The translations under genes were made by a program, and so were the position numbers. 64,000 bases of DNA from Escherichia coli (GTDB taxonomy: Bacteria > Pseudomonadota > Gammaproteobacteria > Enterobacterales > Enterobacteriaceae): NCBI RefSeq assembly GCF_044324785.1, contig NZ_CP172127.1; one strand, 5' to 3'. Under the pieces are notes generated by a model. It did no database searches and was not told where the DNA came from. It saw only the letters and a program-made list of their open reading frames with translations. Of this stretch, positions 1-31,805 are shown piece after piece. Each line of letters begins with the position of its first letter. Within the stretch, counting starts at the first letter, position 1.

Positions 1-906
1 CCCTTTTTGCGTGTTAAACGCATAATAATAGGTCCCGAGCTGCGGCGGCGTATAAACCTGCCCCGGAATATCCTTCAACAGCTTCTGATACATATTTTTC
101 GGGAAGGATTCGGTGATATCAATATCCCCCGCGAGGTAACGCTTAGTGGCTGCGGATTCCTGATTAATTGGCAAGAAGGTCACTTTTTGCAGTACCGTTT
201 TGGCGTTATCCCAATAATGGGTATTCGGTACCACGACCAGTTTTTCATTGACTACGCGCTCTTCAAGAACATAAGCGCCATTACCGATCAGTTTTCCGGG
301 TTTCGTCCACTCTTTAATGCTTTCTACGTTGGCTTTTTGCACCGGGAAGAAGGCAAAGTTAGCGGTTAAATTCACAAACCACGGCAACGGTTTATCAAGC
401 TGGATTTTCAAAGTATGGGCATCAACTGCGGTGACGCCAAGCTGGTCAGGCGTGGCTTTACCATCAATAATCGCCTGTGCGTTGTTGATTCCCGCCAGCG
501 CGGCAAACCATGCAAATGGCGACAATGTTTTTGGGTCCACCAGACGTTGCCAGCTGTAGACAAAATCTTGCGCCGTTACCGGTGTGCCATCCGCCCATTT
601 TGCGTTATCGCGCAAGGTAAATGTCCAGATACGGTTGTCATTACTTTTCCACTGAGTCGCAACGCCGGGGACAATCTCCCCTTTCTCGTTCTGATTCACC
701 AGTCCTTCAAACAGATCGCGAATGACCTGAATCTCTGGCAGGCCCACGGCTTTAGCGGGATCCAGCGACGCAGGTTCATCTTTAATGTGGCGCACCAACT
801 CCTGCTTCTCTGCCAGTACTGTGCCGCTCGGAACTTCTGCAGCATACGAAAGAGAAATGCTGCTGACCAACAGCGCACAACACGTGACTGAAACAGAGTG
901 CTTCAT
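1..906 (-). CDS. mppA: Periplasmic murein tripeptide-binding protein, N-terminal part; 3' end lies beyond the window start
   Basis: Minus-strand translation from the ATG at 904-906 gives a signal peptide followed by an OppA-family substrate-binding protein; absent from the ORF track because it runs off the window. Plus-strand ORFs 7-891 are antisense artefacts. Confidence 0.8.
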   Translation of the reverse strand, partial: MKHSVSVTCCALLVSSISLSYAAEVPSGTVLAEKQELVRHIKDEPASLDPAKAVGLPEIQVIRDLFEGLVNQNEKGEIVPGVATQWKSNDNRIWTFTLRDNAKWADGTPVTAQDFVYSWQRLVDPKTLSPFAWFAALAGINNAQAIIDGKATPDQLGVTAVDAHTLKIQLDKPLPWFVNLTANFAFFPVQKANVESIKEWTKPGKLIGNGAYVLEERVVNEKLVVVPNTHYWDNAKTVLQKVTFLPINQESAATKRYLAGDIDITESFPKNMYQKLLKDIPGQVYTPPQLGTYYYAFNTQKG

Positions 907-1242
907 AAGTTTCCCTCTAACCGACATTAAAATTGATGCGTAATTATTTGTTTCGCCTTAAAGAAATGCAAACAACTTCCATCAAAAAAGTGACAAAGGA
1001 AGCATCAAATGTTTTAAGTATCAATATATCAAATCAGATTTAGCGTAAATAATAGTCTCCAAAATGCGGTAAAGCACATAGAACTCCGAACACTACGTTC
1101 GGGCTTCGCACGTTCAAACCCGTTTTCGGTATCATAATCAGCATCTGTCGCCATTGTGCGAAGAATAAAAAATGACCAAAACGTTGAAAGGAACTGAGAA
1201 TACGTTAAGAGAAGAATTAAATTAATGTATCAGCAAGTAGTG

Positions 1243-2142
1243 CTAAACAGCACCTTTATACTTCAGCCTATCTATAAATAATGAGAATGCCGAGCCAGCA
1301 TGTCGACGGTGTGGATAGTACAGGTGATAACCGGGTAAATCTGGTGTGAATTTATCCAAAACACGTATCAGTTTTTTTTCTTTAATAGCCCGCTCAACCT
1401 GATCATAAGGTAGATACGCCAACCCATGCCCATCAATTGCAGCATCAATGATCAGGTCTATCGTATTCAGTAAAAGCTGACCTTCCATGCGAACACGAAC
1501 TTCACGTCCACCGCGTATTAATCTCCAGCGATTTGCTGTACCCGATGTGGGAAGATACAAATTAATTGCCTGATGATCTATTAATTGTGACACTGACGTT
1601 GGAGCACTTCGACGAGAAAAATAATCCGGTGAGCCAACAATAGCCATTGGTATATCTGGCCCGATTCGAATGGCGATCATATCTTTATCCATCTCCCCAC
1701 CCAGACGGACGCCTGCATCAAAACGTTCAGAAACGACATCGGTCAAACCATAATCAATGGTAAGCTGGATATCAATTTCAGGATGCGATTTCAGGAATGT
1801 GCGCATAGCTGGTAACAATATCGTTTTTGCTGCATGTTCTACAGTAGTAATACGTATTGTCCCGGATGGGCGGTTCTGCAGATCGCTCAGGGATGTCAGG
1901 GCAGAATCTATGTCATGCAACATAGGGCCAAGAACAGACAAAAGATGCTCGCCCGCTTCAGTGGGTACAACGCTGCGCGTGGTTCGCGTCAGAAGCCGCA
2001 ATCCTAATCGTTCTTCTATACGGCGCACTATCTGGCTTAAAGCTGACTGCGCCATGCTCAGGCGGGCTGCTGCGCGAGTGAAGCTACGCTCCTCTGCAAC
2101 GACGACAAACGCCATCAGATCAGCGATTTCTTCACGCTTCAT
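1243..2142 (-). CDS. pgrR: LysR-family transcriptional regulator (PgrR/YcjZ)
   Basis: 299 aa; N-terminal helix-turn-helix (SFTRAAARLSMAQSALSQIVRRIEERLG) typical of LysR regulators; divergent from the ycjY operon. Confidence 0.85.
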   Translation of the reverse strand: MKREEIADLMAFVVVAEERSFTRAAARLSMAQSALSQIVRRIEERLGLRLLTRTTRSVVPTEAGEHLLSVLGPMLHDIDSALTSLSDLQNRPSGTIRITTVEHAAKTILLPAMRTFLKSHPEIDIQLTIDYGLTDVVSERFDAGVRLGGEMDKDMIAIRIGPDIPMAIVGSPDYFSRRSAPTSVSQLIDHQAINLYLPTSGTANRWRLIRGGREVRVRMEGQLLLNTIDLIIDAAIDGHGLAYLPYDQVERAIKEKKLIRVLDKFTPDLPGYHLYYPHRRHAGSAFSLFIDRLKYKGAV

Positions 2143-2163
2143 TCAGTATCTCCATACAATCTA

Positions 2164-2210
2164 TTAATCATTTAAATGATAGGTCTAATCATGATTTTGG
2201 GTCTAATCAA
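2164..2210. promoter_or_regulatory. Cluster of palindromes and direct repeats in the pgrR/ycjY divergent intergenic region; candidate LysR-type operator
   Basis: Perfect palindrome ATCATTTAAATGAT (2167-2180), palindrome AATCATGATT (2187-2196), and direct repeat GGTCTAATCA at 2182-2191 and 2200-2209. Confidence 0.4.
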
Positions 2211-2267
2211 CTTAATGATCAATATCTATAGTGATATCACCAACCGTCAAAACGAACCGACAACTCC

Positions 2268-3200
2268 ATGAGGAACGGAATGATGAATAATAAAGTCAGC
2301 TTCACTAACAGCAATAATCCAACCATCTCTTTGTCTGCAGTGATCTATTTCCCTCCAAAATTTGATGAAACCCGTCAGTATCCGGCAATTGTGGTATCTC
2401 ACCCAGGTGGGGGCGTTAAAGAGCAAACGGCCGGAACCTATGCCGAAAAACTGGCGGAAAAGGGATTTGTCACTATTGCTTATGACGCATCTTATCAAGG
2501 TGAAAGCGGCGGCGAGCCGCGTCAGTTAGAAAACCCATACATTCGTACTGAAGACGTCAGTGCCGTGATTGATTACCTGACAACGCTTTCTTATGTCGAC
2601 AATACCCGAATTGGTGCGATGGGAATTTGTGCCGGTGCAGGATATACAGCCAATGCTGCAATTCAGGATCGCCGCATCAAGGCCATCGGTACTGTTAGTG
2701 CGGTCAATATTGGTTCGATGTTCCGTAATGGTTGGGAAAACAATGTGAAATCTATTGATGCCCTACCATACGTTGACGCGGGTTCAAACGCCCGAACCAG
2801 CGATATTAGCAGCGGAGAATACGCCACTATGCCACTGGCACCAATGAAGGAGTCCGATGCGCCGAACGAAGAACTGCGTCAGGCCTGGGAGTATTACCAC
2901 ACCCCTCGCGCGCAGTATCCAACAGCACCGGGTTACGCTACTTTGCGCAGCCTTAACCAGATTATTACCTATGATGCTTACCATATGGCGGAAGTGTACC
3001 TGACTCAGCCGATACAGATTGTGGCGGGCAGCCAGGCAGGGAGCAAATGGATGAGTGACGACCTGTACGATCGAGCATCAAGCCAGGATAAACGCTATCA
3101 CATTGTTGAAGGCGCAAACCATATGGATCTTTATGACGGCAAAGCCTATGTGGCTGAAGCAATTTCAGTATTAGCTCCGTTCTTTGAGGAAACTCTGTAA
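2268..3200 (+). CDS. ycjY: Alpha/beta-fold hydrolase with Cys in the nucleophile elbow (GICAGAG), YcjY-like
   Basis: 310 aa; G-x-C-x-G nucleophile elbow; first gene of the operon divergent from pgrR. Confidence 0.75.
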   Translation: MRNGMMNNKVSFTNSNNPTISLSAVIYFPPKFDETRQYPAIVVSHPGGGVKEQTAGTYAEKLAEKGFVTIAYDASYQGESGGEPRQLENPYIRTEDVSAVIDYLTTLSYVDNTRIGAMGICAGAGYTANAAIQDRRIKAIGTVSAVNIGSMFRNGWENNVKSIDALPYVDAGSNARTSDISSGEYATMPLAPMKESDAPNEELRQAWEYYHTPRAQYPTAPGYATLRSLNQIITYDAYHMAEVYLTQPIQIVAGSQAGSKWMSDDLYDRASSQDKRYHIVEGANHMDLYDGKAYVAEAISVLAPFFEETL

Positions 3201-4132
3201 TGAAACATATTCAAATCCGCAATAGTGATATGGCCTGGCATATTGCTGCCAATATTCAGTTTCCACCAAATTTTGATGAGTCAAAACAGTATCCGGCGAT
3301 TATCAGCGTCCATCCTTTTGGCAGTTGTAAGGAGCAGACGTCTGGCAATATCTATGGCAAGGCATTGGCTGAAAAAGGCTATGTCGTTCTCGCTTATGAC
3401 GCCAGTTTCCAGGGAGAATCTGGTGGGGAGCCTCGTTGGATAGAAGATCCGACACAGCGCGTTGAGGATATTAGCCGTGTTATCGATTATGCAGTAACTC
3501 TGCCATATGTTGATGCTGAACGCATTGGCGTGCTGGGTGTGTGTGGGGGGGGTGGCTATGCCATTAATGCCGCGCTGACAGAAAAACGAATTAAAGCTGT
3601 AGTGAGTATTACGGGTGTTAATATCGGGCGTCTTTTTCGAGAAGGTTTCAGCAATTACGATCCGATTGGCGCATTGAATGCAATGGCGTCGCAACGAACC
3701 AAAGAGGCTCGTGGTGGAGAATTACAGATCAACGAATTACTTCCCGCCAGCCTGGATGCAGCAAAAGCCCATGGACTGACCGAACGCGATGTTTATGAAG
3801 CAACTGACTACTATAAAACACCACGCGGGCAACAACCGGGAGGTGCGACAAAAATGTTGTTCTCACATGCACAGAAAACGCTGGCCTGGGATGCCTTCGC
3901 ATTTACTGAAGTGTTACTGACTCAGCCGGTGATGGTAGTAGTTGGTGAAAAAGTCGGTGCCTTCGGTGCTTATCGTGATGGACTGGAAGTCTATGGCCGG
4001 GCGATGGTTTCGCAGGATCGTCAGTTAGTTTCGTTACCCGATTTCTCACATTATGAACTGTATGACAAACCGGAAGCAGTTCAGGAGGCGCTGGAAAAAG
4101 TTATTCCTTTTTTCAACACCCATCTGGGATAA
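3200..4132 (+). CDS. Tandem paralog of ycjY: alpha/beta hydrolase with Cys nucleophile (GVCGGGG)
   Basis: 310 aa, roughly 45% identical to the upstream gene by eye; stop/start overlap TAATG at 3198-3202 suggests translational coupling. Likely the intact form of the locus I recall as a pseudogene (ymjD) in K-12. Confidence 0.7.
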   Translation: MKHIQIRNSDMAWHIAANIQFPPNFDESKQYPAIISVHPFGSCKEQTSGNIYGKALAEKGYVVLAYDASFQGESGGEPRWIEDPTQRVEDISRVIDYAVTLPYVDAERIGVLGVCGGGGYAINAALTEKRIKAVVSITGVNIGRLFREGFSNYDPIGALNAMASQRTKEARGGELQINELLPASLDAAKAHGLTERDVYEATDYYKTPRGQQPGGATKMLFSHAQKTLAWDAFAFTEVLLTQPVMVVVGEKVGAFGAYRDGLEVYGRAMVSQDRQLVSLPDFSHYELYDKPEAVQEALEKVIPFFNTHLG

Positions 4133-4137
4133 GTTTC

Positions 4138-4788
4138 ATGAGAAATATTATGAAAAAAGTACTCATTCTTGGTGCTGGCGGTCAGATAGCCCGCCATGTG
4201 ATTAATCAACTGGCAGATAAACAAACCATTAAACAAACTTTATTTGCTCGTCAGCCAGCAAAAATACACAAACCCTATCCAACTAATAGCCAGATTATTA
4301 TGGGGGATGTACTGAATCATGCAGCACTGAAGCAGGCCATGCAGGGACAGGATGTTGTGTATGCCAACCTTACGGGGGAAGATTTAGATATTCAGGCAAA
4401 TTCAGTGATCGCTGCGATGAAAGCCTGTGATGTTAAACGTCTGATCTTTGTTCTTTCCCTCGGTATTTATGATGAAGTTCCAGGAAAATTTGGCGAATGG
4501 AATAATGCAGTTATTGGTGAACCCCTAAAACCATTCCGCAGGGCTGCGGATGCAATTGAGGCTTCTGGACTGGAATATACAATTCTTCGCCCTGCCTGGC
4601 TGACTGATGAAGATATTATTGATTATGAGCTTACCTCACGCAATGAACCATTCAAAGGTACGATCGTATCACGTAAGAGTGTCGCCGCATTAATTACAGA
4701 TATCATCGATAAACCTGAGAAACACATTGGTGAGAATATAGGCATCAATCAACCCGGGACTGATGGCGATAAACCCTTCTTCATGTAA
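4138..4788 (+). CDS. NAD(P)-binding Rossmann protein (NmrA/atypical-SDR-like)
   Basis: 216 aa; N-terminal VLILGAGGQIARH dinucleotide-binding motif. Probably the intact counterpart of the K-12 pseudogene ymjC. Confidence 0.65.
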   Translation: MRNIMKKVLILGAGGQIARHVINQLADKQTIKQTLFARQPAKIHKPYPTNSQIIMGDVLNHAALKQAMQGQDVVYANLTGEDLDIQANSVIAAMKACDVKRLIFVLSLGIYDEVPGKFGEWNNAVIGEPLKPFRRAADAIEASGLEYTILRPAWLTDEDIIDYELTSRNEPFKGTIVSRKSVAALITDIIDKPEKHIGENIGINQPGTDGDKPFFM

Positions 4789-5078
4789 ATCAATTATATA
4801 GCTACCATCGTACTGTACTATGTGCAGTACGATTTATTAAACTTATTAAGGTGAACTGATCAATCAGATGCGATTAACATGTGTAGAACCAGTAAGAATA
4901 AAATACGCCATGTATATAACATTACGACAATTCTAATATCTGCACATCAATGAAAATGCAAACAACTTCTGGCAAAAAAGTGATACAAGATCGATGACAT
5001 AGCGTTGAAGAAAAGGATTTGATAATCCGCAAAATTTGCACAACACTGCCTGTAATACTTCCTGAACCAGAGACGATC

Positions 5079-5807
5079 ATGACCGTAACCCGCCCACGCG
5101 CCGAACGCGGCGCATTTCCGCCCGGAACAGAACATTACGGACGTTCATTATTGGGCGCGCCGTTAATCTGGTTTCCTGCCCCTGCAGCCAGCCGCGAAAG
5201 TGGTTTGATTCTGGCTGGCACTCACGGTGATGAAAACTCTTCGGTCGTCACGCTCTCCTGTGCTCTGCGGACGTTGACACCTTCTTTGCGCCGTCATCAT
5301 GTGGTGCTGTGTGTAAATCCTGACGGCTGCCAGTTGGGGTTACGGGCCAATGCTAATGGTGTGGATTTAAACAGAAACTTTCCGGCGGCGAACTGGAAGG
5401 AAGGTGAAACCGTTTATCGCTGGAACAGCGCCGCTGAAGAACGTGATGTCGTTTTACTGACAGGTGACAAACCTGGCTCCGAACCTGAAACCCAGGCGCT
5501 GTGCCAGCTTATACACCGCATTCAACCTGCCTGGGTGGTCTCATTCCACGATCCACTGGCCTGTATTGAAGATCCCAGACACAGCGAATTAGGCGAATGG
5601 CTAGCCCAGGCGTTTGAATTGCCTCTGGTAACCAGCGTCGGTTATGAAACACCTGGCTCTTTCGGTAGTTGGTGTGCGGATCTCAACCTGCATTGCATAA
5701 CCGCAGAGTTTCCGCCCATCTCCTCCGACGAAGCCAGCGAAAAATATCTCTTTGCGATGGCAAACTTGCTGCGCTGGCATCCTAAAGATGCAATTCGCCC
5801 GTTGTGA
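5079..5807 (+). CDS. mpaA: Murein peptide amidase A (gamma-D-Glu-Dap amidase)
   Basis: 242 aa from the internal ATG at 5079 (MTVTRPRAERG...); the ORF-track start at 5019 is an upstream in-frame extension. Confidence 0.85.
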   Translation: MTVTRPRAERGAFPPGTEHYGRSLLGAPLIWFPAPAASRESGLILAGTHGDENSSVVTLSCALRTLTPSLRRHHVVLCVNPDGCQLGLRANANGVDLNRNFPAANWKEGETVYRWNSAAEERDVVLLTGDKPGSEPETQALCQLIHRIQPAWVVSFHDPLACIEDPRHSELGEWLAQAFELPLVTSVGYETPGSFGSWCADLNLHCITAEFPPISSDEASEKYLFAMANLLRWHPKDAIRPL

Positions 5808-6747
5808 ACTGAAGCGCCGGTTCCACATCTACCGCCAGCCAGGTCGGTCCGTCAAGATCGGCGAAACTGACCTGCGGCACCAGCGGTAAAGCGGCGCTAA
5901 TGGCACGAGAGGTACACAACATGCAGCCCAGCATCAGACTAAAACCTTGTGCACGTGCTTCAGTCGCCAGCGCCAGCGCTTCCGTCAGGCCACCCGTTTT
6001 ATCGAGCTTAATGTTAACCATCTCATAGCGCCCTTTCAGCGCCTTCAGATTGCTACGAGTATGACAACTTTCATCTGCACAAATCGGTAACGGATGAATA
6101 AAATTCTCCAGTGCCGCATCGTCCTGCGCAGGGAGCGGTTGTTCAAGCATCGCAACGCCTAAATCCGCCAATAGCTGGCAACGCGCCGCCAACCCTTCTG
6201 CACGCCAGGATTCATTTGCGTCAACGATCAGCGTCGCATCGGGCACAGCTGTGCGAATTGCCACCATCCGCTCACTGATAAGATGGTTATCCAGCTTCAC
6301 TTTCAGTAATTTCGCGCCTGCCTGCCAGAATGTTGATGCACTATTGGCCATCTGATCAGGCGTACCGATGACTACCGTCTGTGCAGTGGTGACTATCTCG
6401 GGAAGCGTTACGCCGATCAAATCAGCCAGCGATTGCTGCTGTTTTCGCGCCGCCAGATCCCACAATGCACAATCCAGCGCATTACGTGCTGCGCCGGCAG
6501 GGAGAATTTTTTGCAACTCCTCCCGTGTCAGCCCTTTCTCTAATTGCGGCACGACGCTCATAATTTGCGCCATTACCGAGGCATCACTTTCTCCATAGCG
6601 CGGATAGGGCGTGCATTCACCGGTGCCTTTAATACCCTCTTCTTCCAGTTCAACCACCACCACGCGCGCTTCACTGCGACTTCCCCGAGCAATCACAAAC
6701 GGGGTATGTAAGGGCCAGGCTTCCTCAAATACCTTAACGGTTCTCAT
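5782..6747 (-). CDS. ycjG: L-Ala-D/L-Glu epimerase (enolase superfamily)
   Basis: 321 aa from MRTVKVFEEAWPL; 3' end overlaps the mpaA 3' end by 26 bp (convergent). Confidence 0.85.
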   Translation of the reverse strand: MRTVKVFEEAWPLHTPFVIARGSRSEARVVVVELEEEGIKGTGECTPYPRYGESDASVMAQIMSVVPQLEKGLTREELQKILPAGAARNALDCALWDLAARKQQQSLADLIGVTLPEIVTTAQTVVIGTPDQMANSASTFWQAGAKLLKVKLDNHLISERMVAIRTAVPDATLIVDANESWRAEGLAARCQLLADLGVAMLEQPLPAQDDAALENFIHPLPICADESCHTRSNLKALKGRYEMVNIKLDKTGGLTEALALATEARAQGFSLMLGCMLCTSRAISAALPLVPQVSFADLDGPTWLAVDVEPALQFTTGELHL

Positions 6748-7415: not shown

Positions 7416-8957
7416 TTACTCTTCGTTCTTCTTCTGACTCAGACCGTATTCCCGCAACTTATTGGCAATCGCGGTATGCGAAACGCCCAGGCGTTTTGCC
7501 AGTTTGCGCGTGCTGGGATAATTGCGATAAAGCTGGGTTAATACCGAGCGTTCAAAACGGCTGGTGATTTCGTCCAGCGAACCTTCCATCGCATCTTCGC
7601 CCACGGCTACCGTTGCGGCGTCATAATCCGGTAACAAAATATCCTGTGGACGCAGCTCATAACCGTCCAGTTGTGTTAGTGCGCGATAAATAGCGTTCTT
7701 TAACTGCCGCACATTTCCCGGCCACGCATAACGCGTAAGTACAGTATTCAGGTCAGCGGCCAGTTTCGGACGCGGCACGCCCTGCTCGTCGGCAAAGCGG
7801 GCGACGAACAGCTCGGTTAACGGCATGATGTCCTGCGGACAGTCACGTAGCGGCGGCAGATTGAGCGTCAACACGTTCAGACGATAATAGAGATCTTCAC
7901 GGAACACGCCTTTTTGCACCAGTTCGACAAGATTCTTCTGCGTCGCGCAAATCACCCGCACATCGACATGCACCTCATGGTCTTCGCCAACCCGACGGAA
8001 AGTGCCATCATTAAGGAAACGCAGTAATTTCGCCTGCATCCGTGGTGACATCTCACCTATTTCATCCAGCAGTACCGAACCACCGTTCGCCTGCTCAAAG
8101 AACCCTTTCTTCCCTTCCGGAGCATGACCAAACAGTTCACTCTCGACCGCATCTTCCGGGATAGAAGCACAGTTCAGCGCCAGATAGGGTTTGCCCGCGC
8201 GTGGGCTTGCCTGATGACAGGCATACGCAAAGAGATCTTTTCCGGTGCCGGTATCACCCGTAATCAGCAGCGGCGCGCTTAGCATCGCCAGTTTTTGCGC
8301 CTGTTCGACAACATGCTTCATTTTCGGGCTGACAGCGACAATTTGACTAAAGGCGCTGACGTCCTGGGCGGCGACATTTTGCAACTGACGGCCCATACGA
8401 ATCGTTGATCGCAACATCACCACCGCACCGGTCAGGACGTGTTGATCATTTTCATCCTGAAGATAAACAGGCGTAATCTCCATCAGGAAATTCTGCCCAT
8501 TAATAACGACATGCTCGTTATGCGAATCTTGCGGTTCGCTTTCCAGCCAACGTAAAAAATTAAAGCCGTTAATCAATTGTGCGGCGGTATGGTTGCGCAG
8601 GCGATCCAATTTTTGCCCAAAAAGCTGACAGCTCGCCGGGTTCGCCATATCCACTTTGCTTTTCATATCGACAGAGAGCACAGGTTCAGGCAACGCCTCC
8701 AGTAACGCGCTCAACGCCAGATGCTCACGTTCGGAAGGCATCCACGGGACAGTACGGACATCGGTAACACCTGCAATACGGCGTATTTCGGCCATCAGAC
8801 TGCTGAAACTCTCAAACTCCAGTTCAGCAAAATTGAGGTAGATTCGCCCAATGGGGTCAATCTCAATACCGCGTAAATCAATGCCTCTTAGCACGAGTAG
8901 ATCGAGTAATTCGCGGGTCAGACCGAGTCGGTCTTCACAAAAGACTTCCAGACGCAT
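7416..8957 (-). CDS. tyrR: Transcriptional regulator TyrR (sigma-54-interaction-type AAA+ domain)
   Basis: 513 aa from MRLEVFCEDRLGL; GDTGTGKD Walker A and C-terminal helix-turn-helix. Confidence 0.9.
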   Translation of the reverse strand: MRLEVFCEDRLGLTRELLDLLVLRGIDLRGIEIDPIGRIYLNFAELEFESFSSLMAEIRRIAGVTDVRTVPWMPSEREHLALSALLEALPEPVLSVDMKSKVDMANPASCQLFGQKLDRLRNHTAAQLINGFNFLRWLESEPQDSHNEHVVINGQNFLMEITPVYLQDENDQHVLTGAVVMLRSTIRMGRQLQNVAAQDVSAFSQIVAVSPKMKHVVEQAQKLAMLSAPLLITGDTGTGKDLFAYACHQASPRAGKPYLALNCASIPEDAVESELFGHAPEGKKGFFEQANGGSVLLDEIGEMSPRMQAKLLRFLNDGTFRRVGEDHEVHVDVRVICATQKNLVELVQKGVFREDLYYRLNVLTLNLPPLRDCPQDIMPLTELFVARFADEQGVPRPKLAADLNTVLTRYAWPGNVRQLKNAIYRALTQLDGYELRPQDILLPDYDAATVAVGEDAMEGSLDEITSRFERSVLTQLYRNYPSTRKLAKRLGVSHTAIANKLREYGLSQKKNEE

Positions 8958-9104: not shown

Positions 9105-10166
9105 TTATTTTTCGCTGGGCGTTTTGCCTTTTTGCAGCGTTTCTTTCACCTGACCGATAAGCTGACGACGGAAATCCCCAAGGCGAGGTTTGTCATCGTC
9201 AATCCACGGCAGAGGGCGGCAAAGCTCCATAGCTTTAATCCCCAGTCGTGCCGTCAGAAGTCCAGCACCAATCCCCTGAGCTGCCCGGGTAGACAAACGC
9301 GCAGCGAGATCTTGCGACATCCAGTCCATCCCCACTTCGCGCACCAGTTCGCTGGCCCCGGCGAAAGCGATATTCAGCAATACCAGCTTAAACAGGCGCA
9401 AACGGCTGTAATATCCCAGTTCAATGCCATACAGCGTGGCGATGCGATTGATCAAACGCAGATTGCGCCAGGCGATAAATGCCATATCCACCAGCGCCAG
9501 CGGGCTAACGGCGATCATCAACGTTGATTCCGCTGCCGAACGGCTGATTTCGCGCCGCGCCTGGGCATCTAAAACTGGCTGGACCAGATGAGCATACAGG
9601 CTGACCACTTCACGATCGTTCTGCGTTTCATGGATTGAGGCATACCAGCGTTGCAGTGCCGGATGCGACTGGTCGATGCCCGCCTGCTGCGCCAGTTTTT
9701 CGCAAAATGCGCGGCCTTTACCCGTGCCGTGACTGTGCAACAAATCGCGCGCTTCGTCGCGTTCATGGGCGCGCTGTCGCAAGCGCCATAAGCGCCGCCA
9801 CTCTGTTACCACAGAACCTACGCCAGCGCCGATAATCAATGCCCCAGCGGCACATCCACCCAGCGCTACCCAATCCTGAGTTTGCCAGGCGTTCATTGTC
9901 CACTGTACGCCCTGCCCGACAACGCTTGCGCCAAACAGAGCCAGCCCGCCCATCACCATTTTGCGCCACAGGCTGCGTTTCGGACGTAACGCTGCGTCCA
10001 TCACCGCTTCAACTTGCCCTTCTTCTTCCGGTGCTTCGTCGAGCGTGGCCGGAGCAAAATTTTGCGCCTGATTTTCGTCAAAGGTCTGCTGCGCCCTGAA
10101 TTTTGGATTCTGATCGACCTCCAGTGGACCGTCGAAATCAATACGTGGTTTTAACGGTTCGGTCAT
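9105..10166 (-). CDS. ycjF: Inner-membrane protein YcjF (DUF697)
   Basis: 353 aa; overlaps the ycjX stop by 4 bp. Confidence 0.85.
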
Positions 10167-11560
10167 CGCAATTTATCTCCTATTAAAAATTCCAGCGCAG
10201 CATCAAGACGAATATGCGGCAGCGGTTTGTCGACATCCATCACCTGCGGACGAAACGCCTCAAACTGGAAGCCTTGCTTATCCCAGAACGCCTGACCAGG
10301 TAAACGTGCGGGAACTTCGCCAGGATAAACAGTGAGCGGTGCGCCATCGCTGAGTCGATTACCGCGCAGCGCCGGGATTTTCTCACCGTTAACATCAATA
10401 ATGCCGCTGGTGGTCGCCTGAACTGACGCCAGCCCCAGGCAGTCCATGCTGATCCCTTCGAAAGCCGCATTTTGCCAGGCATCCTGAATTAGTTGTTGCA
10501 GTAATGAAACCATATTGGCGTGCTGATCGATGGTCACATGGTCTGCTTTAGTGGCAGCAAACAATAGCTTATCGATAACCGGCGAAAACAAACGCCGGAA
10601 CAGGGTTCGCTGCCCGTAGTGGAAACTTTGCATCAGCTGCGTCAGCGCCAGACGCATATCATTAAATGCCTGTGGCCCACTGTTGAGAGGCTGCAGGCAA
10701 TCCACCAGCACAATCTGGCGGTCAAAGCGCAGAAAATGATTCTTATAGAATCCCTTCACCACTTTCTCGCAGTAATAATTAAACCGCTCGCGCAGCATTC
10801 CGGCATTGGTATGCTTATCGGCCTGCGCCAGTTTGGACTCGCCCCAGGCATCGACATCCGGCCACGGGAAGAATTGCAGCGCGGGCGCACCTGCCATATC
10901 TCCCGGCAAGACAAAGCGCCCAGGCTGAATAAAGTGCAACCCCTGCTGTTTGCAGTGGTGGAGATACTCGGTCCAGGCGGCGGCAATGTCTGCCAGCCGG
11001 TTTTCGTCGGCAGGCGCTAGCGGATCCAGCCCTTCGCACATCATTCGCCATTTCGCCGACCATTCGCCGCGCTGACCATTAAGTAAGCCCGTCATCTGGC
11101 GCGACCAGCTTAAATAGTCCTGCGCCAACATCGGCAGATCGAGCAGCCATTCGCCGGGATAATCCACAATCTCCAGATACAGCGTGGAGGTGTCCTTGAA
11201 GTGGCGTAGCAGCGAATCGTTCGATTTAAAACGTAACGCCAGGCGAATTTCACTGACGCCGCGCGTAGGCGTCGGCCAGGCGGGAGGATCGCCATATAAC
11301 TGCGCCAACCCTTCATCATAGGTGAAGCGCGGAATGCCAAAGTCACGCTGGGGAATGCGTTTTACGCCCAGCAGGCGCTCTTCACGCACCGCACTTAAAA
11401 GCGGCAAACGTGCTCCGGCATGAATATTGAGCAACTGATTAACCATCGCGGTGATAAACGCTGTTTTGCCGCTGCGGCTAAGTCCGGTTACAGCGAGGCG
11501 CAGATGTCTGTCGACACCCCGATTCACCAGCGCATTAAGTTCATTTTTAAGTCGCTTCAT
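10163..11560 (-). CDS. ycjX: P-loop NTPase YcjX (DUF463)
   Basis: 465 aa; Walker A GLSRSGKT. Confidence 0.85.
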
Positions 11561-11678
11561 TGCTGTCCTGTGCCAGAAAGCTGTAGAAAGGATTAGATAC
11601 TGGAGATAATAATGTGGGTTAATTTTGATTTATCAAATGAATAAGCGGCGTTGTTTACACCGCTCAATAAGTAATTTG

Positions 11679-11993
11679 TTAACCTTTGACCTTCGGCATT
11701 GCGATGTCTTTCAGGCCACCGGCGTTCTCAACGTGGGTATATCCCATCTCGCTAAGGATCTCTTTTGCCTGCCCTGACTGGCGTCCGGCATTGCAATACA
11801 CTTTCACGGTGTCGTTTTTATCCGGAACGGCGGTGGCAATGCGCTCTTTTACTTCCTTCAGGGGAATATTGATGGCCCCCTGAACGTGCTCTTGCTGATA
11901 CTGCTCTGGAACACGAACATCGATCCAGTGTTCAGCGGCGAAAACGGGCAGTGAAAACACCAGTGTCAGAGCAAGTAAGCCTTTTTTAAACAT
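11679..11993 (-). CDS. pspE: Periplasmic rhodanese (thiosulfate sulfurtransferase) PspE
   Basis: 104 aa with signal peptide and active-site Cys (YCNAGRQS). Confidence 0.9.
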   Translation of the reverse strand: MFKKGLLALTLVFSLPVFAAEHWIDVRVPEQYQQEHVQGAINIPLKEVKERIATAVPDKNDTVKVYCNAGRQSGQAKEILSEMGYTHVENAGGLKDIAMPKVKG

Positions 11994-12067
11994 GTAAGCG
12001 TCCTTCTATGGATGAAAATTGCCATCCATAATATGCCTTAGCTTTAACAATTTTTGCGAAACTCCCC

Positions 12068-12289
12068 TCACCTTTTATAACGCTGCGCCAGTTTATTGGC
12101 AGCCCGACTTAACAGCGGTTCCAGCGCCACGGCCAGCAACATTTTCAGTGGTCGGCGAGCAACTGATTTTATCGCCCAGCCAGCTACACCCGCCGGGCCA
12201 TAGCGCAGTGCGGTAAGAAGTACCAGCTTGCCTGCTAATTTGAAACCAGGCTTCACCTTTTGCCCGGCCTGTTGCCAGCGAGTATTCAT
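12068..12289 (-). CDS. pspD: Phage shock protein D
   Basis: 73 aa from [10 protein letters not shown]. Confidence 0.85.
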
Positions 12290-12297
12290 AACTTTCC

Positions 12298-12657
12298 TCA
12301 CAGTTGACGGAAACGGCTACGTAACGTGAAAGTATCGGAAGTGACATAACGTTCCATCTCGCGTAAACGCGTTTCACTTGCCGCCAGTTCACGGTCGACT
12401 TCATCCAACAATTCGCTGCTGGAAGGTAGCTGCTCACCAAAGGCCATGTTGTCCGGCATTGGATCAAGCGCAAATGACAAAATGATGTAAGCAACCAGGG
12501 TAAACAGCGCCAGACCGAAGAAAATCGACAGCACCACCAGGATACGCACCAGTTTTACCGGTACATCAAAATAGTTGGCAATCCCGGCGCAAACGCCGCG
12601 TACCATGCCCTGCTGCGGAATACGCCATAATTTTTTATTGAGATTAATGCCCGCCAT
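12298..12657 (-). CDS. pspC: Phage shock protein C
   Basis: 119 aa; membrane segment. Confidence 0.9.
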
Positions 12658-12881
12658 TAGCGATCCCTCCAGTTCGGATGTTCTGCATCAAGAATAGATT
12701 CCAGCGCCTGAGTACGTTCGCGCATCCGTTTTGCTTCATCAGCCAGTTGCGCTAATCGCTGCTGCTCACTTTGCGACAATTCACTGCGACCAGAACGATT
12801 GCTGTAATGCAGCCATAACCAGATCGGTAAAACAAACAGCACAAAAATGGTTAACGGAATAGCCAGAAATAGCGCGCTCAT
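12657..12881 (-). CDS. pspB: Phage shock protein B
   Basis: 74 aa; single transmembrane helix. Confidence 0.9.
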   Translation of the reverse strand: MSALFLAIPLTIFVLFVLPIWLWLHYSNRSGRSELSQSEQQRLAQLADEAKRMRERTQALESILDAEHPNWRDR

Positions 12882-12934: not shown

Positions 12935-13675
<741 letters not shown>

Positions 13676-13769: not shown

Positions 13770-14747
13770 ATGGCAGAATACAAAGATAATTTACTCGGCG
13801 AGGCGAACAGCTTTCTCGAAGTGCTGGAACAGGTTTCGCATCTCGCACCGCTGGACAAACCGGTGCTCATCATCGGCGAGCGCGGCACAGGTAAAGAGCT
13901 GATTGCCAGCCGTCTGCATTATCTCTCCTCCCGTTGGCAGGGGCCGTTTATTTCCCTTAACTGCGCGGCGTTAAATGAAAATCTGCTGGATTCCGAACTG
14001 TTTGGTCACGAAGCGGGCGCGTTTACCGGTGCGCAAAAACGTCATCCAGGGAGATTTGAACGTGCCGACGGCGGTACGCTATTTCTTGATGAACTCGCTA
14101 CGGCACCGATGATGGTACAGGAGAAATTATTGCGCGTGATTGAGTACGGTGAACTGGAGCGCGTTGGCGGCAGCCAGCCATTGCAGGTGAATGTGCGGTT
14201 GGTATGCGCGACGAATGCCGATCTCCCGGCGATGGTCAATGAAGGTACTTTTCGCGCTGACCTGCTCGACCGGCTGGCTTTCGATGTAGTGCAACTGCCG
14301 CCCCTGCGCGAGCGCGAAAGCGACATTATGCTGATGGCAGAACACTTTGCCATTCAGATGTGTCGGGAAATCAAGCTGCCTCTGTTCCCGGGGTTTACGG
14401 AGCGCGCCAGAGAAACATTGCTGAATTATCGCTGGCCGGGAAATATTCGTGAATTGAAAAACGTGGTGGAACGTTCAGTGTATCGCCACGGCACCAGCGA
14501 TTATCCGCTTGATGACATCATTATTGATCCCTTTAAACGGCGTCCGCCTGAAGACGCTATCGCCGTTTCAGAAACCATCTCGCTTCCAACACTGCCGCTG
14601 GATTTACGTGAGTTTCAGATGCAGCAGGAAAAAGAGTTGCTGCAACTCAGTTTGCAACAAGGGAAATATAACCAGAAGCGCGCGGCTGAATTACTGGGGT
14701 TAACCTATCATCAGTTCCGCGCGTTGTTGAAAAAGCACCAGATTTAG
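13770..14747 (+). CDS. pspF: Sigma-54 activator PspF
   Basis: 325 aa from MAEYKDNLLGEANSF; GAFTGA motif. Confidence 0.9.
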   Translation: MAEYKDNLLGEANSFLEVLEQVSHLAPLDKPVLIIGERGTGKELIASRLHYLSSRWQGPFISLNCAALNENLLDSELFGHEAGAFTGAQKRHPGRFERADGGTLFLDELATAPMMVQEKLLRVIEYGELERVGGSQPLQVNVRLVCATNADLPAMVNEGTFRADLLDRLAFDVVQLPPLRERESDIMLMAEHFAIQMCREIKLPLFPGFTERARETLLNYRWPGNIRELKNVVERSVYRHGTSDYPLDDIIIDPFKRRPPEDAIAVSETISLPTLPLDLREFQMQQEKELLQLSLQQGKYNQKRAAELLGLTYHQFRALLKKHQI

Positions 14748-14786: not shown

Positions 14787-14828
14787 TGAACTGCACCCCA
14801 AATGTTGGACATAATCTGACATCTGAAG

Positions 14829-15359
14829 GTGCAGTTTATGAAACATTCATTTGAAGTAAAACTTGCCGCTGTAAATCATTACCTGGCTGGTCATGCAGGC
14901 ATCATTTCTACGGCAAAACTCTTTCAACTTTCTCACACCAGCCTCTCACACTGGATTAATCTTTTTCTTCTTCACGGTCCTCGGGCACTGGATTGCAGAC
15001 ACAAGCGTAGCTATTCTCCTGAAGATAAACTTTGCGTGGTTCTTTATGCTCTCGGGCATTCTGAGTCTCTACCCCGGGTAGCTGCCCGGTTTAACATTCC
15101 CAGCCACAACACGGTTAAAAACTGGATAAAAGGCTACCGCAAATCTGGTAATGAGGCCTTTATCAGGCGCAGGAAGGAGAAAAGCATGACCCGTTCTGAT
15201 GATACCCATGAAAACGAGGCAAACATGACGCCGGAAGAGATGAAGAATGAGCTGCGTTATCTTCGCGCAGAAAATGCATATCTGAAAGCCATGCAGGAGC
15301 ATCTCCTGGAAAAAAAGCGCCAGGAGCTGGAGAAAAAACGAAAGTCATCCGGAGCCTGA
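14829..15359 (+). CDS. IS3-family transposase OrfA (helix-turn-helix, leucine zipper)
   Basis: 176-aa ORF; A-rich slippery stretch GAGAAAAAACGAAAG near 15335-15350. Confidence 0.8.
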   Translation: MQFMKHSFEVKLAAVNHYLAGHAGIISTAKLFQLSHTSLSHWINLFLLHGPRALDCRHKRSYSPEDKLCVVLYALGHSESLPRVAARFNIPSHNTVKNWIKGYRKSGNEAFIRRRKEKSMTRSDDTHENEANMTPEEMKNELRYLRAENAYLKAMQEHLLEKKRQELEKKRKSSGA

Positions 15360-15463
15360 GGTGCGGACACTGCCAGTCTGACCTGTTAAAGGCTGCAGGG
15401 CTGGCCAGAAGCACGCTGTACTACCAGCTGTCACTGCAGAAGGCTAAGGACAAGTATGCTGAT

Positions 15464-16218
<755 letters not shown>

Positions 16219-30369: not shown

Positions 30370-31176
30370 ATGATCGAAACGTTGCTTGAAGTGCGTAATT
30401 TAAGTAAAACGTTCCGCTACCGGACCGGCTGGTTTCGTCGTCAGACCGTAGAAGCGGTAAAACCCTTGAGCTTTACGCTACGTGAAGGCCAGACACTGGC
30501 GATCATTGGCGAGAATGGTTCTGGTAAATCCACGCTGGCAAAAATGCTGGCGGGAATGATAGAACCTACCAGCGGCGAGTTATTGATTGACGATCATCCG
30601 CTGCATTTTGGCGATTATTCCTTCCGCAGTCAGCGTATCCGCATGATTTTTCAGGATCCTTCGACCTCGTTGAATCCCCGTCAACGTATCTCGCAAATTC
30701 TGGATTTTCCACTGCGTCTGAACACCGATCTGGAACCTGAACAGCGTCGCAAACAGATTATTGAAACGATGCGTATGGTTGGGCTGCTACCGGATCACGT
30801 CAGTTACTATCCGCATATGTTGGCACCCGGGCAAAAACAGCGTCTGGGGCTGGCGCGCGCGCTGATATTGCGCCCAAAAGTCATTATTGCCGATGAAGCC
30901 CTCGCCTCACTGGATATGTCGATGCGTTCGCAGTTGATTAATCTGATGCTGGAGTTACAGGAAAAACAGGGCATTTCGTATATTTATGTTACCCAGCATA
31001 TCGGAATGATGAAGCACATTAGCGACCAGGTGCTGGTGATGCATCAGGGCGAGGTTGTCGAGCGAGGCAGCACCGCGGATGTGCTGGCATCGCCGCTGCA
31101 TGAACTCACCAAACGGCTTATTGCCGGTCATTTTGGCGAGGCATTGACGGCGGATGCGTGGCGTAAGGACCGTTAA
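30370..31176 (+). CDS. sapF: ABC transporter ATPase SapF
   Basis: 268 aa; Walker A GENGSGKS. Confidence 0.9.
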   Translation: MIETLLEVRNLSKTFRYRTGWFRRQTVEAVKPLSFTLREGQTLAIIGENGSGKSTLAKMLAGMIEPTSGELLIDDHPLHFGDYSFRSQRIRMIFQDPSTSLNPRQRISQILDFPLRLNTDLEPEQRRKQIIETMRMVGLLPDHVSYYPHMLAPGQKQRLGLARALILRPKVIIADEALASLDMSMRSQLINLMLELQEKQGISYIYVTQHIGMMKHISDQVLVMHQGEVVERGSTADVLASPLHELTKRLIAGHFGEALTADAWRKDR

Positions 31177-31805
31177 CAGGTTTCCTGGCTAGTACAATAT
31201 TCTTCACCGATAGCATCAGGGTCGATAAAGGGATACTCATTTTGCATAATATCCTGTAAATATTGTGCAAAATTAACAGCAATGACCTGATAGCTATCGG
31301 GATCATGTAAATAACGAACAATTTGTCCAGATTTTCCTTTTGGAGATGGAGAAAAGTCGATATATAAACGTGAAGTGCCGCCATTATTAATGCAATGAGC
31401 AAAACAGAGCCAGCGATGAAACGGTACAGTTGGATCTATACGTTCATCAACATCGACTTCGTCCATTTGCCCATCGTAGATTTTCATGATGGATTCCTGA
31501 CCAAACCATGACTTTCTTTCCTCCAAAATCTGCTGGGCAGACTGGAGATAATAGGGATATTCTCCGCCTTCAACATCCGCCCCTAAAACGGGTAAAAATA
31601 CCTTTTTATCCTGATGTTGTTGAAAATAAGTTCCCTTGATCTGGCGAAGCAAACCGAGTAAATCCTCCGAAGAATCAGGATATTCATGGAGAAGTTCTGT
31701 TATATCGCTTTCTTGCGCTCCAGACAGTGTTGCAAATAATGCCCTGACATCCGTTGGCAAATGTGCGGCAAGCCCGGCCAAATATTCCTGATACATTGTC
31801 ATCAT
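31173..31805 (-). CDS. Hypothetical 210-aa protein, low-GC; possibly SUKH/SMI1-KNR4-like
   Basis: Convergent with sapF, stop codons overlapping; visibly AT-rich against the surrounding DNA. Family assignment is a guess from the C-terminal NNGGTSRLYIDFSP...GQIV pattern. Confidence 0.5.
   Translation of the reverse strand: MMTMYQEYLAGLAAHLPTDVRALFATLSGAQESDITELLHEYPDSSEDLLGLLRQIKGTYFQQHQDKKVFLPVLGADVEGGEYPYYLQSAQQILEERKSWFGQESIMKIYDGQMDEVDVDERIDPTVPFHRWLCFAHCINNGGTSRLYIDFSPSPKGKSGQIVRYLHDPDSYQVIAVNFAQYLQDIMQNEYPFIDPDAIGEEYCTSQETC

Follow-up and report, generated by a model that had tools for sequence, protein, structure and literature searches.

Does the close apposition of pspE and ycjX in some Escherichia coli chromosomes reflect loss of the ycjM-ycjW/ompG cluster that separates the two genes in K-12, or a state that preceded the arrival of that cluster? 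The question is raised by a 64,000-nucleotide stretch of contig NZ_CP172127.1 (hereafter the window), which comes from E. coli and whose shared genes are 96-99% identical to those of K-12. An earlier note on the window, made from the sequence alone, reported that only 118 bp separate pspE from ycjX, gave about 14 kb between them in K-12, and left two options standing: the cluster was either never acquired in this lineage or removed cleanly. The evidence assembled here favours the first. With a probability of roughly 0.85, the window carries an ancestral empty-site psp/ycjXF allele that never received the 14.1-kb segment, and whose spacer combines a terminator with a ycjX promoter.

The features concerned, with their positions in the window, are the following.

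13770-14747, plus strand: pspF, the divergent sigma-54 activator of the psp operon (NCBIfam NF008622, 679 bits; coordinates as annotated in strain N3)
12935-13603, minus strand: pspA, first gene of the psp operon (NCBIfam equivalog NF007974, 444 bits; pspA in the N3 annotation)
12657-12881, minus strand: pspB (NCBIfam NF006993)
12298-12657, minus strand: pspC (NCBIfam NF007973)
12068-12289, minus strand: pspD (NCBIfam NF007795; coordinates as annotated in N3)
11679-11993, minus strand: pspE, a thiosulfate sulfurtransferase (rhodanese) gene and the last psp gene (NCBIfam NF007627, 213 bits)
11561-11678, minus strand: the 118-bp pspE-ycjX spacer, short (putative empty-site) allele (from the ORF coordinates; 100% identical in N3 and 042)
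11574-11659, minus strand: the allele-specific 86-bp core of the spacer (14.1 kb lie at the same position in K-12)
11642-11666, minus strand: predicted hairpin 3' of pspE (structure prediction and terminator scan)
11609-11636, minus strand: promoter-like box for ycjX (promoter scan and cross-genus conservation)
10163-11560, minus strand: ycjX, encoding a YcjX-family GTP-binding protein (99-100% identity to annotated YcjX)
9105-10166, minus strand: ycjF (TIGR01620, 433 bits; 4-nt overlap with the ycjX stop)
7416-8957, minus strand: tyrR (NF008085 match)

PspA to PspE, PspF, YcjF and TyrR all score above the curated NCBIfam cut-offs. With pspABCDE ordered on one strand and pspF divergent upstream, the locus has the models, gene order and strands of a pspF/pspABCDE-type Psp (phage shock protein) operon, and the stretch from pspF to pspA is 96-99% identical to K-12. 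Downstream lies a ycjXF(-tyrR) unit, in which a P-loop protein of the YcjX type (for which no NCBIfam model matched) is followed by an overlapping YcjF membrane protein (TIGR01620) and then by tyrR. With ycjX on the same strand and 118 bp 3' of the last psp gene, the whole has the extended psp-ycjXF layout known from Yersinia.

The 118-bp distance given by the earlier note was exact (11561-11678, minus strand), and ycjXF do lie directly downstream of the psp operon across that gap, as it had said. Its account of K-12 also proved accurate: in MG1655, 14,113 bp separate the pspE stop from the ycjX start, and they hold ycjM, N, O, P, Q, R, S and T, pgmB (ycjU), a frameshifted ycjV, ompG and the divergent ycjW. 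A tblastn search of the whole 64-kb window found none of YcjM, YcjN, YcjT, OmpG and YcjW encoded there. The reported lack of a scar, remnant or repeat at the junction was likewise borne out, as the repeat search returned only repeats of chance length (all inside coding regions) and no IS remnant, and an Rfam scan of 11300-12100 returned no family.

The frequency of this arrangement was assessed in complete E. coli genomes. A 96-bp core of the spacer, representing the short allele, was found in 372 of 5,426 genomes, with one copy in each and always on the chromosome; even sensitive blastn (word 11) gave no match in any other of the 5,426. A 1.5-kb query across the junction was contiguous in 378 of the 5,423 genomes that it matched and split in the remainder. 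The long allele was recognised by the K-12 ycjX/ycjW junction in 5,043 of the 5,426 genomes and by the K-12 pspE/ycjM junction in 5,022, which disposes of the possibility, allowed for in the earlier note, that the gene order of K-12 differs and the two genes are adjacent in all strains. The locus is essentially biallelic (~93% long, 6.9% short). Within the long-allele cluster, ycjT was found in 4,985 of the 5,426 genomes and is missing from 441; these figures include ~70 further genomes with secondary damage inside the ycj cluster, in which ycjT is missing without a short junction. The possibility that the junction is an assembly artefact, that is, a collapsed or mis-joined contig, is practically nil, since one copy of the same sequence is present in each of 372 complete RefSeq assemblies, the finished 042 reference among them.

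Strain 042, the enteroaggregative (EAEC) prototype, has an identical 118-bp spacer and the same gene order as the window from puuE to mpaA, features that it shares with ~370 other complete genomes. Other carriers of the short allele include PCN033 and O166:H15 strains, and the hosts of isolates with this allele include humans, cattle, dogs and chickens. Representatives of the long allele are K-12 (phylogroup A), ABU 83972 (B2) and SMS-3-5, the last of which belongs to phylogroup F in the current scheme. In published strain comparisons, 042 is assigned to phylogroup D and SMS-3-5 is placed under the older D grouping (PMC8347550). The presence/absence polymorphism is in itself ordinary and essentially already documented, being visible in annotated reference genomes; an explicit statement that the cluster is absent from phylogroup D was not found in the literature.

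Several other spots in and around the window also vary between strains. The 1,432 bp at 14787-16218, between pspF and puuE, are absent from K-12, ABU 83972, SMS-3-5, 042, N3 and E. albertii. Two ORFs within them (14829-15359 and 15464-16186) match the N- and C-terminal parts of an IS3-family transposase model, and the segment looks like a strain-specific IS3-family insertion; the repeat tool found no terminal inverted repeat. ABU 83972 (L003, 21068-21500) has no puu (putrescine utilisation) genes between pspF and ymjA, only a small pseudogene fragment. These genes are present in the window, K-12, 042 and SMS-3-5, and the puuE-puuC stretch is the part of the window most diverged from K-12 (~95.5%). 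At 2268-3200 and 3200-4132, tandem alpha/beta-hydrolase genes encode proteins of 310 aa each with a mutual identity of only 42%, where 042 and SMS-3-5 have a single hydrolase gene (ycjY) and ~890 bp less; the tandem appears to represent an extra ycjY-like paralogue in the ycjY-mpaA region. Between sapF and fabI, the segment 31176-31950 is unmatched in K-12, where ycjD occupies the spot, and in ABU 83972 and SMS-3-5, which have a TetR/RND/MFS efflux cluster instead. This segment holds a 210-aa ORF (31173-31805, minus strand) without an NCBIfam match and would count as a third variant of a variable spot. SMS-3-5 also carries a terminus inversion. The ycj cluster is itself unusually diverse within E. 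coli: ycjT identity falls to 90-95% in 555 genomes, and the ycjW-ycjX spacer of SMS-3-5 (L088, 9805-9947) is 143 bp long, 12 bp shorter than that of K-12 and ABU 83972 and only 80-82% identical to it.

The evidence that bears most directly on the origin of the short allele lies in the spacer. Alignment to K-12 and other Escherichia, as the earlier note had proposed, defined the bounds of the indel. Homology between the window and K-12 stops at 11573, 13 nt upstream of the ycjX ATG, and resumes at 11679, the pspE stop codon (blastn), or at 11660, 19 nt beyond it (megablast). The intervening 86-105 bp find only weak similarity, and no counterpart, in the 14.1 kb of K-12; a search there for remnants of the window spacer gave nothing but the 13 nt before ycjX that both alleles share. 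The window and the K-12 pspE terminator have the same 5' hairpin arm (TGAGCGGyG). From TTGATAA to the ycjX ATG, identity to the K-12 ycjW-ycjX spacer is 63% (56/89 columns); it is 63-64% to Citrobacter and 58-63% to Enterobacter. Against E. albertii it rises to 90%, and against L006, a second non-coli Escherichia genome, to 89%; the pspE-ycjX spacers of both are colinear with that of the window over its whole length.

These comparisons can be set against a clean deletion, in which a K-12-like ancestor lost ycjM-ycjW by precise, scarless excision. A junction without IS, repeat or gene remnant fits such an event, and secondary loss of the cluster does occur, with ycjT missing from 441 genomes against 372 short junctions. 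However, all of the junction of a deletion derivative should also be found beside the cluster in long-allele genomes, and this is not so here. Its 86-bp core is unmatched in ~5,050 long-allele genomes and in the 14.1-kb insert of K-12, and since a deletion cannot create sequence missing from its parent, the core was not left by excision. The promoter-proximal part is 63% identical to K-12, as opposed to 96-99% in the flanks, and it is in other Escherichia species that the spacer has its orthologue. For comparison, isolate F637 (L004, 4817-5857) bears a documented secondary deletion, an independent IS1-mediated loss of nearly the whole ycj cluster, which retained a 288-bp ycjW stub and IS1B beside pspE. 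With its core lacking a homologue in long-allele genomes and its promoter side at 63% identity beside flanks at 96-99%, the spacer leads us to reject clean removal as very improbable. Of the two options in the earlier note, the orthology of the spacer thus upholds the first, a cluster never acquired, and the unmatched core speaks against the second.

An orthologous spacer could also have been regained. Under reversion by allelic replacement, a cluster-bearing ancestor would have re-imported the short allele by recombination in pspE/ycjX, from another Escherichia lineage or from a rare one within E. coli that had kept it. E. coli commonly recombines across such flanks, and the long allele is found in A, B2 and F, groups that bracket D in many published trees. 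The divergence of ycjX/ycjF from K-12 (95.7-96.6% identity, with ycjX at 96.6%), which exceeds that of the psp genes (98-99%), points the same way. Nevertheless, the flanks resemble E. coli all the way to the breakpoints. The flanking genes are 96-99% identical to K-12, ABU 83972 and SMS-3-5, while E. albertii and L006 reach 89-90% over the whole aligned stretch; for pspE, the figures are 99% to K-12 versus about 90-93% to E. albertii and L006. No recombinant tract of foreign-level divergence was seen, and reversion is accordingly considered improbable. A recent import of the short allele from the E. albertii or L006 lineage was considered separately and rejected: flanks and spacer are ~10% diverged from both, and with a spacer that differs by ~10% from each, neither is the donor.

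The preferred reading, an allele that never received the segment, draws on the orthology between the spacer of the window and the pspE-ycjX spacer of other Escherichia species. On this sequence comparison, the window most probably has the ancestral empty site, with flanks that are normal E. coli alleles.

Gene order in other bacteria points in the same direction. A one-genome-per-species scan for YcjX covered 80 of the at least 600 species loci that matched; E. fergusonii, Salmonella and Escherichia clade I are not among the 80. In 64 of these loci, which extend beyond Escherichia as far as Photobacterium and Aeromonas, ycjX is preceded on its own strand by a psp gene (pspC, pspD or pspE) that ends no more than 400 nt away. 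That psp gene is a pspD that abuts ycjX or overlaps with it in Yersinia, Serratia, Rahnella, Tatumella, Proteus and others. In Salmonella LT2, STM1685 is ycjX and STM1684 is ycjF; STM1686, which we take to be pspE, is hence next to ycjX. A previous comparative study had found that ycjX often lies within psp operon structures (Huvet et al. 2011). The position of psp genes upstream of ycjX in 64 of 80 loci indicates that the ancestral arrangement is kept in the window and that the K-12 layout is derived. The earlier note had framed the window as the unusual state, and this has to be reversed: adjacency of psp and ycjXF is the rule across Enterobacterales, and K-12 is the one that departs from it.

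The ycj cluster adjoins ycjX in 6 of the 80 loci. Four of these are from Enterobacter cloacae, an Enterobacter MAG, Superficieibacter and Siccibacter. In the other two, Citrobacter sp. FP75 and C. werkmanii (L032 and L060, positions 1-6000), ycjT...ompG-ycjW lie upstream of pspE, giving the order ycjW-pspE-ycjX. In Enterobacter, the cluster sits between pspD and ycjX, and pspE is absent. Across genera, the cluster thus takes three different positions relative to pspE. Its presence beside ycjX in Enterobacter, Superficieibacter, Siccibacter and some Citrobacter is consistent with an older presence followed by repeated loss at deeper nodes, which is possible.

Under the preferred reading, the common Escherichia ancestor, like most Enterobacterales, would have carried ycjXF directly after the psp operon on the same strand. 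Most E. coli lineages would later have gained 14.1 kb comprising ycjM-V, ompG, ycjW and a foreign-looking ycjX promoter region, and this segment would have taken the place of all sequence from the loop of the pspE terminator to position -13 of ycjX. The lineage of the window (phylogroup-D-type, ~7% of complete genomes) would have remained without it. The position of D in the E. coli tree is debated, and in many published trees D is not the deepest branch. With long alleles found in A, B2 and F, a single gain after the D split is therefore not guaranteed; the polymorphism may instead have been retained, the long allele may have spread by recombination, or the short allele may have been re-imported.

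The ycjX promoter region of the long allele is as diverged from that of the window as the region in another genus, which suggests that the cluster may have arrived as a block, one end of which falls at about -13 of ycjX. A fuller version of this proposal, which we regard as doubtful, is that the long allele did not arise by insertion into an E. coli spacer but as a block from a distant enterobacterium in which ycjW already lay beside ycjX, with crossovers at about -13 of ycjX and at the pspE terminator, so that D would be the only major group in the pre-import state. If this were true, the indel would serve as a rare-genomic-change marker for early branching of D, and D strains, unlike K-12, would couple ycjXF to the Psp response and have pspE free of YcjW control.

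What the retained spacer might do can be considered in two parts, the first of which is the modest stem-loop that the earlier note had described at the junction. Folding confirmed it as a hairpin that starts 12 nt past the pspE stop, with a 10-bp stem, a 5-nt loop, a predicted energy of -14.7 kcal/mol and a z of -3.7 against shuffles. Its tail is UUCAUUUGAU, an interrupted U-tract with at least 5 U in 8 (the rule of the scan). Stable, GC-rich and directly 3' of the stop codon, it has the character of an intrinsic (Rho-independent) terminator hairpin, and the terminator scan agrees. At the equivalent site, K-12 has a 9-bp hairpin followed by nine consecutive U. The hairpin is kept in E. albertii and L006 with wobble-compatible changes, and Citrobacter and Phytobacter have a different GC-rich hairpin in the same place. 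It is the probable terminator of pspE and the psp operon and is possibly leaky; with its broken U-tract, compared with the U9 of K-12, it looks the weaker of the two. This part of the spacer would end pspE transcripts, probably incompletely.

The second part is a promoter-like box that begins 5 nt after the stem, with TTGATA(A) at 11636-11630, CCCACATT at 11618-11611 and CATTAT at 11614-11609. Read as a sigma-70-type promoter (TTGATA-16-CATTAT), it scores 9/12 in the scan. Both alleles, as well as Citrobacter and Enterobacter, have kept the pair TTGATAA...CCC(C)ACAT. It resembles the sigma-32 consensus, CTTGAAA - spacer - CCCCATNT; measured against this, the box has an imperfect -10 element and unusual spacing, with a spacer 1-3 nt shorter than in K-12. 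A sigma-32 promoter of ycjX has been reported in K-12 (Nonaka 2006 and RegulonDB, as quoted in later literature). We infer that the box corresponds to this reported promoter region, and the sigma-70-type reading is equally possible. In both alleles, then, ycjX is predicted to have its own promoter, which in the window would be TTGATAA...CCCACAT.

Partial read-through from the PspF/sigma-54 promoter into ycjXF is a tentative proposal, to which we give slightly less than even odds; it is plausible for other species with the short allele as well. It gains plausibility from Yersinia enterocolitica, in which pspABCD-ycjXF are described as an operon (Darwin and Miller 2001; reviewed in PMC3467454). 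The conserved hairpin at the end of pspE and the separate conserved promoter box argue that ycjXF would not depend on such read-through. Expression of ycjXF would come from its own promoter, with perhaps some PspF/sigma-54 read-through added during the Psp response.

The practical consequences are modest. Strains with the short allele are without the kojibiose/glucosylglycerate pathway, OmpG and YcjW. According to the literature, loss of YcjW in K-12 de-represses ycjM-V/ompG and raises pspE mRNA. With ycjW absent, and no YcjW site downstream of pspE, pspE in the window cannot be under YcjW control of the K-12 type, and in strains of this kind the control that YcjW exerts in K-12 on PspE-mediated H2S production would likewise be missing. 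The statement that ycjXF are unlinked from psp in E. coli holds for ~93% of strains and not for all, and short-allele strains offer a natural background in which membership of ycjXF in the Psp response could be tested.

A further consequence concerns strain typing. Deng et al. (2014, as cited in PMC13118800) proposed ycjM for PCR identification of enteric E. coli, and its absence from environmental and cryptic-clade Escherichia has already been reported. Whereas that work dealt with absence in environmental and cryptic clades, the absence described here is in host-associated E. coli proper. Given that ~7% of complete genomes are without ycjM, a ycjM test would miss the short-allele strains as false negatives. 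The ycjM-negative strains include phylogroup-D-type human pathogens such as EAEC 042.

Among genomes with the short allele, the flanks of the window are only ~98.5-98.8% identical to those of 042 and of the ~370 others; the nearest genome is N3, at 99.3-99.6%. The window also differs from 042 and the other short-allele genomes compared in having an IS3-family element beside pspF. K-12 resembles the window in its flanking genes (96-99% DNA identity), in the presence of a hairpin after pspE and in a TTGATAA...CCCCACAT box ~80 nt upstream of ycjX. It differs in the 14,113 bp between pspE and ycjX, in a stronger U9 terminator, in a ycjX upstream region of 63% identity and in the presence of YcjW. 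In Yersinia, as in the window, ycjXF come directly after the psp genes on the same strand, with pspF divergent upstream. However, Yersinia has no pspE, and its pspD abuts or overlaps ycjX, whereas in the window pspD is separated from ycjX by pspE, a hairpin and a promoter box. With these elements intervening, coupling of ycjXF to psp looks looser in the window than in Yersinia.
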